From: Escherichia phage BabyEgg
Sequence record: PP925846.1
Strand: one strand, 5' to 3'
DNA length: 50,849 nt
Of this stretch, positions 32,840 through 33,559 are shown one piece after another. Both the position numbers and the translations under genes were made by a program. The notes beneath the pieces are model-generated. The model was not told the DNA's origin. It ran no database searches and saw nothing but the letters and a program-made list of their open reading frames with translations. Positions within the stretch are counted from its first letter, which is position 1; every line of letters starts with the position of its first letter.

Positions 32840-32865
32840 GCCCCGCATATGCGGGGCATTTTTTT
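32840..32865. terminator. bidirectional terminator between ssb and the leftward fibre genes
   Basis: GCCCCGC atat GCGGGGC with an A-run upstream and T7 downstream. Confidence 0.65.
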
Positions 32866-33559
32866 AGTCTAACGTGGTTGGTTTGTTTACCAGTGCCGCT
32901 ACAACCGCTTTTAGCTCGTCAATTTCTTTTCTCATCTCCTCATTTTCCGCTTTCAGTTTCTTAACGTGGTGAATCAGTGGAACAGTCAGGCGTTCATACA
33001 TAACGCCTTCCGCCACCATGCCATTACTTGAAGCAATGGCAGGATCCTCCCCTTCTTGAAGCGGTCGCCAGTGAACGTACTCCGGCGCAATCTCTCCAAC
33101 TTCCTCTGCAATCAGTCCGTACCATCCCCAATCTTTACGGTCGCTTTCACAGGTTGACCGATACCACACAGGACGCATTTCAAGCATCAGATCCGCATAA
33201 TCATCAATAACCGATTCTACGCTGCGCTTATAACGAGAAGAGGAAGTGGAGCGTAAAACTTGCGAAACTCCGGCATTTGGATCAAGCCATAAGTTTGCTG
33301 ATTGAGCGGTTGTGTTAAGACTAAACAAATAAAATGCCTCGTTACCAGTCAGAGGGTAAAAATTACCGCTGTGATTCCCGCTCTCTAACTCGGATGATAG
33401 ATCAGTTTGTTTTAGATACGGTTTCAACTTATTGTCAACATCAGTAGTTGATGCTTTTCCGGCAACATCCTGTTTTAGTGTCGAAACATCCTGTTTTATC
33501 GTAGAAACATCATTTTTCAGCTTCGTTATATCACTAGGTATAACAGTGACTGTAGCCAT
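32864..33559 (-). CDS. short fibre-like protein with C-terminal intramolecular-chaperone (peptidase S74-like) domain
   Basis: N-terminal heptad coiled coil (DITKLKNDVSTIKQDVSTLKQDV); C-terminal GWYGLIAEEVGEIAPEYV ... VMYERLTVPLIHHVKKLKAENEEMRKEIDELK resembling the endosialidase-type chaperone domain. Confidence 0.5.
   Translation of the reverse strand: MATVTVIPSDITKLKNDVSTIKQDVSTLKQDVAGKASTTDVDNKLKPYLKQTDLSSELESGNHSGNFYPLTGNEAFYLFSLNTTAQSANLWLDPNAGVSQVLRSTSSSRYKRSVESVIDDYADLMLEMRPVWYRSTCESDRKDWGWYGLIAEEVGEIAPEYVHWRPLQEGEDPAIASSNGMVAEGVMYERLTVPLIHHVKKLKAENEEMRKEIDELKAVVAALVNKPTTLD

Follow-up and report, generated by a model that had tools for sequence, protein, structure and literature searches.

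A short gene with a stand-alone S74-type chaperone domain in the lateral tail fibre locus of Escherichia phage BabyEgg and its place in a mobile three-gene cassette

In the accepted view, S74 intramolecular chaperones (IMCs) act in cis, as the tails of large fibres and spikes. In Escherichia phage BabyEgg (sequence record PP925846.1; 50,849 nucleotides, the whole of which was analysed and is called the window here), a domain of this kind is encoded on a short gene of its own, next to the gene for a 650-residue lateral tail fibre that has none. What, then, does the domain do? The original prediction, made from the DNA sequence, described a 231-residue leftward product with an N-terminal heptad coiled coil and a C-terminal chaperone, and left open whether it is an accessory fibre or acts in trans on the main fibre. 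The comparative evidence presented here favours the accessory fibre and disfavours action in trans. On balance, we lean towards the view that the product is a minimal self-trimerising, self-cleaving fibre protein, and an optional third component of a mobile lateral tail fibre cassette. The gene and its predicted parts are as follows.

32864..33559, minus strand: the complete short S74 gene, from the list of open reading frames (ORFs) and translation; precursor of 25.8 kDa.
32867..33244, minus strand: residues 106–231, the Peptidase_S74 IMC, from Pfam PF13884, a PDB profile match, AlphaFold2 with Foldseek, and the ratio of nonsynonymous to synonymous substitution (dN/dS).
33245..33439, minus strand: residues 41–105, a conserved 65-residue end-piece before the predicted cleavage site, which also ends a 1187-residue lateral fibre.
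33440..33559, minus strand: residues 1–40, a conserved start motif, MATVTVIPSDITKLK, with four heptads; a predicted trimeric coiled coil and proposed attachment module.

The translation of ORF 32864-33559 (minus strand) is identical to the protein originally described, including all three of the sequence stretches singled out there, and the endosialidase-type domain proposed for its C-terminus is borne out. The Pfam Peptidase_S74 model (PF13884, positions 1–57 of 58) matches residues 106–162 with E = 1.2e-4 and a score of 22.8 bits, which is marginally above the curated gathering cut-off of 22.0 bits, and precomputed PF13884 matches are present on many of the listed homologues. A search of PDB sequences with the single protein returned coiled-coil noise only, and a family profile was therefore needed. 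The profile, of 46 sequences, matched the C-terminal IMC of an L-shaped tail fibre of known structure (8hqz) with E = 3.1e-7, followed by 7dc3, the ICA domain of MyRF (6e-4), and 6f45, gp37 of phage S16 (1.4e-3). The AlphaFold2 model has a predicted local distance difference test score (pLDDT) of 80–94 at residues 120–225 and adopts the IMC fold, a mixed α/β domain followed by a long C-terminal helix (residues 188–224). Comparison of this model with the PDB using Foldseek gave IMC or ICA structures for all of the best 13 matches (7dc3, 3gud, 3gw6, 4uw8), of which only 7dc3 is statistically strong (E = 5e-5, with a target-normalised template modelling score of 0.62–0.65). On this evidence, the assignment of residues 106–231 as an S74-type IMC is secure.

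The position of the domain is also typical. An exhaustive HMMER search with the 231-residue protein yielded 3103 related clusters, of which 1561 have E≤1e-10. The best 150 of the 3103 are proteins of up to 1243 residues, nearly all of them matched at or close to their C-terminus, and in most of them the homology begins between about residues 55 and 83 of the query. In the query itself the domain reaches to six residues before the stop codon. No other S74 domain was found in a six-frame scan of the whole window, and a Pfam search of the 650-residue fibre gave no S74 match, in agreement with the statement in the original prediction that the fibre lacks the domain. NCBIfam contains no model for the 231-residue protein or for the 92-residue protein encoded between it and the fibre.

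The predicted scissile bond is T105|S106, with K111 as the general base, within the motif T105-S106-S-S-R-Y-K111. S106 is nearly invariant in both of our alignments (25 and 46 sequences). K111 does not vary at all in the alignment of 25 sequences and is nearly invariant in the other. The geometry is that of pb1 of phage T5, in which a Thr-Ser pair (T1263|S1264) is followed by a Lys at +5 (K1269) (PMC4690869). If cleavage occurs as in pb1, it would yield products with computed masses of 11.4 kDa (residues 1–105) and 14.5 kDa (residues 106–231). A variant of the domain is seen in one prophage ORF of 241 residues in the equivalent position (locus L146), which has an in-frame duplication of seven residues (EEVGEIA EEVGEIA) in the most conserved part of the IMC.

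The predicted mature part, residues 1–105, consists of a 40-residue coiled coil and a 65-residue generic end-piece. The four heptads expected from the original prediction are clean, and are located at residues 8–35 with Ile or Val at position 4 and Leu or Ile at position 7. The first 15 residues are 80% conserved across lineages. The number of coiled-coil repeats varies: there are alleles of 224, 231, 245 and 268 residues (the window, P0013 with 245, P0019 with 268, and orkinos), differing by insertions of 7–14 residues that duplicate an IPxDITxLKxDVS unit, and in the longer alleles the motif IPxDITxLK recurs internally.

The remaining parts resemble the end of a long fibre. A 51.9-kb IMG/VR contig (loci L008/L009) encodes a single fibre of 1187 residues. 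Its first 270 or so residues are 49% identical to the anchor of the window's fibre, and its last 198 residues are 79% identical to residues 41–231 of the short ORF. Residues 41–105 and the IMC thus make up a terminal cassette, one that is also used to close long single-chain fibres, whereas the 40 residues before it occur in the stand-alone form only and are missing from the fused fibre. In addition, the last 220 or so of the 1385 positions of PHROG 3299 (unknown function) align to residues 7–217, and the PHROG fibre families 5481, 1980 and 6578 match both the N-terminus of the 650-residue fibre and the C-terminus of the 231-residue ORF.

Judging from gene content and order, the short gene is the optional third gene of a mobile cassette, made up of the distal half of the fibre, a protein of about 92 residues, and the S74 protein. 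The cassette is present in Warwickvirus phages, in at least two other types of phage contig, and in many E. coli prophages. Orthologues with 87–96% identity occur in about 40 Drexlerviridae records, and relatives of 227–268 residues with 57–61% identity are encoded by E. coli prophages, where one cluster at 90% identity comprises 2928 member sequences, and by a 60.8-kb phage contig. The same order, with an ORF of about 90 residues and then the short S74 gene, is found in a lambdoid prophage, adjacent to dinI and an integrase gene, and in the 60.8-kb contig; in both, the distal half of the fibre is 40–42% identical to that of the window. Among 80 IMG/VR loci found via the S74 protein, 78 have fibre, ~92-residue and ~230-residue genes in this order and with the same spacing. 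Of 5426 complete E. coli genomes, 2525 match some part of one cassette copy taken from a prophage, a count that takes in partial matches anywhere in it.

The third slot of the cassette may be empty, or be occupied either by the short form or by an S74 fibre of 326–346 residues with the same N-terminus. Among 80 loci found via the 92-residue protein, the short S74 ORF is present in about 17 and a protein of 345–346 residues, starting MATSTVIPDDIKTLK, in ten. The latter has a middle domain of about 200 residues and a canonical C-terminal S74 domain (Pfam E = 6.6e-14), and belongs to phrog_4563, 'tail fiber protein'. The arrangement recurs in a 45-kb phage contig, where the third protein has 326 residues; about 40 of these, at the N-terminus, are 59% identical to the window's protein, and the remainder only 25%. 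The start MATxTxIPxDIxxLK is thus common to third-slot proteins of 227–268, 326 and 346 residues, the shared stretch being roughly 20–40 residues, with different middle domains and S74 subtypes. Phage fibre proteins are typically laid out in this way, with distal parts that are exchanged behind a constant N-terminus, and we infer that the N-terminal module may mediate attachment.

In 44 of the 80 loci found via the 92-residue protein, the third gene is absent and the fibres are intact and diversified. This argues that the main fibre needs no third protein in order to fold. In these 44 loci a 97-residue membrane protein (phrog_1443) directly follows the 92-residue ORF. Prophage cassettes in general then have a conserved predicted membrane protein of this family, of 95–99 residues (for example L094 4292-4585, L148 5369-5668 and L004 2957-3244). 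The window has no counterpart of phrog_1443; there, the operon stops at a terminator that faces ssb.

The S74 ORF is far more constant than its neighbours. Across 70 prophage loci it is at least 92% identical, compared with values down to 37% for the last 500 residues of the fibre and down to 28% for the 92-residue protein, and in about 80 prophage loci its frame is unbroken. Pairwise dN/dS was calculated in two lineages, Warwickvirus and prophages, which share only about 57% identity.

Whole ORF, Warwickvirus: 0.21.
Whole ORF, prophages: 0.16.
IMC core: 0.07–0.11.
Parts remaining after the predicted cleavage: 0.15–0.30, in the two separate lineages.

Purifying selection acts on the whole ORF, and a functionless remnant is therefore unlikely.

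The ORF is nevertheless split into two pieces in 6 of about 47 phage records. At the nucleotide level, three different indels were identified in four isolates: +C in a C5 run (orkinos and AV105), +CC (JLBYU10) and −G (ityhuna). None of the four has a damaged main fibre gene. Programmed frameshifting was considered for the split alleles and rejected, because the three indels are at different positions. The regions equivalent to window 32864-33559 are as follows.

orkinos: L087 3501-4239.
AV105: L090 3501-4239.
JLBYU10: L088 2373-3070.
ityhuna: L089 3501-4174.

The surroundings of the gene identify the locus. The region lies between recombination genes on the plus strand (exonuclease, recombinase and ssb) and the primase and helicase genes, and matches about 78 phage records, the best being Warwickvirus of the family Drexlerviridae (T1-like coliphages). 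According to the BASEL study, the position between the recombination and primase/helicase genes is the lateral tail fibre locus of Drexlerviridae; the BASEL papers describe the locus as variable, with fibres that may be made of one or several proteins, and say nothing further about it (PMC8594841, PMC11990801). The gap between exonuclease and recombinase also varies, being 76 nucleotides in the window (31613-31690) and holding an extra ORF of 258 nucleotides in relatives such as orkinos, ityhuna and JLBYU10. The other features of the fibre operon are listed here.

33850..35802, minus strand: the 650-residue lateral tail fibre, from PHROG tail-fibre families, NCBIfam and a profile search.
33572..33850, minus strand: the 92-residue middle gene, whose start overlaps the stop codon of the fibre (TAATG).
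33568..33573, minus strand: ribosome-binding site AAGGAG, 8 nucleotides 5′ of the ATG of the 231-residue ORF, from direct reading of the sequence.
32840..32857, both strands: GC-rich hairpin terminator, from a terminator scan and the sequence.
35876..35892, minus strand: terminator 5′ of the fibre gene, at the start of the three-gene transcription unit, from a terminator scan and the sequence.

The terminator at 32840-32857 is directly 3′ of the stop codon of the 231-residue ORF, and serves both strands, closing the fibre operon on the minus strand and the ssb unit on the plus strand. Between the three genes, the terminator scan found no site with a comparably GC-rich stem. Given these flanking terminators and none of comparable strength between them, the fibre, 92-residue and 231-residue genes look like one operon, with the 231-residue gene last. 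It had been placed two ORFs downstream of the fibre; it is indeed a separate short gene 3′ of the fibre, and is the second ORF, with the single 92-residue ORF in between.

The gene is already labelled in public records, as 'chaperone of endosialidase', 'putative lateral tail fiber chaperone' (the name given by the BASEL annotators) and 'tail fiber protein'. No study of it was found in the literature on stand-alone or trans-acting IMCs or on Drexlerviridae lateral-fibre chaperones. Beyond what the original prediction contained, the gene belongs to a widespread three-gene cassette and is not an isolated oddity, its product has no room for a receptor-binding domain, and a public annotation of it exists.

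The 650-residue fibre is predicted to contain a lineage-specific N-terminal anchor, an Ala-rich coiled coil, a conserved joint (residues 226–300), a domain resembling the head spike of the Rhodobacter capsulatus gene transfer agent (GTA), and a C-terminal domain resembling Laminin_G_3. The distal half (33853-35100, minus strand) is homologous to Rcc01080, the head-spike fibre of that agent (profile against 6tb9, E = 7.5e-16), and NCBIfam GTA_spike_fiber matches residues 300–500. Laminin_G_3 is found in 19 of 21 fibre homologues (best E = 4.4e-7), the window's own copy having E = 0.033. Identity to the fibres of E. coli prophages varies greatly along the chain.

Residues 1–125, N-terminal anchor: about 20%.
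Residues 226–300 (34903-35127), joint: 78–92%.
Receptor part: 18–61%, mostly 35–60%.
Last 25 residues: 69%.

With 14–61% identity in the parts that flank it, the joint looks like the conserved 5′ end of an exchangeable distal cassette. It was also considered as a docking site for the third protein. This cannot be argued, the same segment being present in L136, the one cassette without a third gene in which the fibre sequence was inspected.

The 92-residue protein belongs to phrog_1361. It is confidently predicted to have a small α/β fold, whose structural relatives are uninformative. It forms more than 130 sequence clusters, always follows this type of fibre, and co-varies with the distal domains of the fibre, so that if the fibre has a helper or adaptor of its own, this protein is the more likely one. 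No chaperone family of the Tfa, gp38 or gp57A type was found in Pfam, PHROG or NCBIfam searches.

On the basis of these observations, we hypothesise that three IMC domains would associate and so set the upstream 105 residues in register as a trimer. S106, activated by K111, would then cut the T105|S106 bond and release the 14.5-kDa IMC, leaving a coiled-coil stub of 11.4 kDa per chain with a small β cap. The stub would dock through its conserved N-terminus on the lateral fibre assembly (the 650-residue fibre, the 92-residue protein, or both), forming a side or terminal branch, and would then be comparable to a second fibre protein like LtfB of the T5-like phages. With no space for a receptor-binding domain in its mature part, the short form probably serves as a structural or stabilising appendage, or else is a cut-down version of the third-slot fibres of 326–346 residues; it is less likely to be a second receptor binder.

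Several points weigh against this hypothesis. The lack of room in residues 1–105 for a receptor-binding domain of its own is itself one of them. The Pfam score barely exceeds its cut-off and is marginal for a single sequence, and in the AlphaFold2 monomer model residues 1–105 have low confidence. The conserved N-terminus might be a coiled-coil repeat unit or a homology arm for recombination, and not a docking surface. All the cassettes without a third gene fall in a single clade of 92-residue proteins and may go back to one loss event; for this reason, the figure of 55% of cassettes that lack the gene has been down-weighted. Unless they are sequencing errors in the records, the frameshift alleles mean that growth on the isolation hosts does not require the gene. 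Finally, the virion proteome of the close relative swan01 names no protein from this locus; it lists five proteins in total, and is too shallow to inform (PMC6563131).

One alternative is that the protein is an assembly factor for the main fibre: its S74 trimer, directly or via the 92-residue protein, would register the 650-residue chains from their C-terminal ends, and would then be cleaved, released and absent from the virion. The name chosen by the BASEL annotators is in keeping with this reading. It would fit with a main fibre that has neither an IMC nor a recognisable Tfa-type chaperone gene, with the single operon in which fibre and 92-residue genes overlap, with the synteny kept across lineages, and with a mature part too small for a receptor binder. 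We nevertheless regard action in trans as unlikely. The protein matched no known family of fibre chaperones in the Pfam, PHROG and NCBIfam searches, and shows neither obligate co-occurrence nor co-variation with a fibre domain: the pair of fibre and 92-residue protein exists and diversifies without it in the 44 loci described above, natural frameshift alleles stand beside intact fibre genes, and the S74 ORF stays at 92% identity or more while the fibre distal domains fall to 37%. Moreover, third-slot genes have the layout of fibres, a conserved N-terminus followed by a distal domain that can be swapped and reaches about 200 residues. The distal domains of the main fibre are of the GTA-head-spike and Laminin_G_3 types, and such lectin-like jelly-roll domains would generally be expected to do without an IMC. 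The chaperone of T5 pb1 acts on its own chain (PMC4690869). A variant, in which the short protein is a detachable intermolecular nucleator whose IMC trimer, through the coiled coil and the 92-residue protein as adaptor, registers the C-terminal lectin-like domains of the fibre and then cuts itself off, seems to us distinctly unlikely.

Two further explanations, both improbable in our judgement, concern the short protein itself. It could be an evolutionary leftover, the cut-off 3′ end of an ancestral long fibre that was separated when a distal-domain cassette with its 92-residue gene was inserted, and would then serve mainly as a downstream homology arm for cassette exchange, with little function as a protein. 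The PHROG families that match the fibre N-terminus and the short C-terminus, like two ends of one protein, would be explained in this way, as would the fused 1187-residue fibre, the near constancy of the ORF next to a hypervariable region that extends from it to the fibre anchor, and the three independent frameshifts. A leftover would not be expected to keep its catalytic Ser and Lys, its frame in about 80 prophage loci, and the low dN/dS of two lineages (0.16–0.21, and 0.07–0.11 in the IMC core), nor to have a strong ribosome-binding site of its own and a new N-terminal coiled coil that has no counterpart in the fused form and is reused on other S74 fibres. The other explanation, which we rate no higher, is an independent second receptor-binding fibre, in which the short protein itself recognises the host surface and widens or alters host range. 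The longer members of the slot (326–346 residues) have a middle domain of about 160–200 residues that could bind a receptor, and in T5 pb1 the receptor-binding tip directly precedes the IMC (PMC4690869). When the coiled coil and the generic end-piece are subtracted from the short form, however, nothing remains that could be a specific binding domain, and the last 25–35 residues of the end-piece are common to most of the best homologues listed. Its identity of at least 92% across prophages, where the main fibre domains are at 37%, is also unlike that of a surface under host-range selection.

With a substrate of only a coiled coil and a 65-residue end-piece, the protein is close to the smallest possible for an IMC, and would be a compact model for IMC-driven trimerisation and cleavage. 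The cassette is common to T1-like lytic phages and lambdoid prophages and places a hypervariable receptor part between constant parts; sorting its structural, optional and chaperone parts bears on the engineering of lateral and side tail fibres for host-range design. Action in trans, if it were true, would be a new mode of fibre assembly, in which an 'intramolecular' chaperone has turned into a reusable trans-acting factor for fibres that have none.

It remains to compare the protein with known systems. With T5 pb1 and other fibres that bear an IMC it shares the domain family, by profile and by fold, and its C-terminal position, together with the Thr-Ser pair with Lys at +5, the long C-terminal helix, and a conserved fibre end-piece before the IMC. 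The difference is in what the IMC serves. In those fibres it is a large mature part (pb1 has 1396 residues, of which the last 133 are removed), whereas here the predicted mature part has 105 residues, and the neighbouring fibre, encoded by a separate gene, has no IMC.

Lateral fibres made of two or more proteins have been reported in Markadamsvirinae and in small siphoviruses (PMC8594841, PMC6563131, PMC11990801). With LtfA and LtfB of the T5-like phages DT57C and DT571-2, and with the T-shaped fibres of BASEL phages, the main fibre gene likewise has a neighbour that encodes a second fibre protein. Like an LtfB-type accessory fibre, the short protein is encoded by an adjacent gene of the same operon and has a conserved N-terminus with an exchangeable distal part. 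In contrast, the LtfB-type proteins are large receptor binders, whereas the short protein has no receptor-binding domain of its own; the 92-residue gene lies between the two genes in the window, and attachment to the main fibre is proposed from sequence comparison.

A further comparison is with the single-chain fibre of other Drexlerviridae, such as Gp36 of JakobBernoulli (Bas07), with its T5-like tip and IMC, and the 1187-residue fibre described above. These are encoded at the same locus between the recombination and primase genes, and have an N-terminal anchor homologous to that of the window's fibre (about 50%). In them, anchor, shaft, receptor domain and IMC are on one polypeptide, whereas in the window they are spread over three genes, with the receptor domains (GTA-spike-like and LamG-like) on a chain that has no IMC. 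The best structural match of the model, the ICA domain of MyRF (7dc3), is likewise a module that trimerises and then cleaves, but MyRF is a eukaryotic membrane-bound transcription factor, and the likeness is one of shared domain family, not of biological role.

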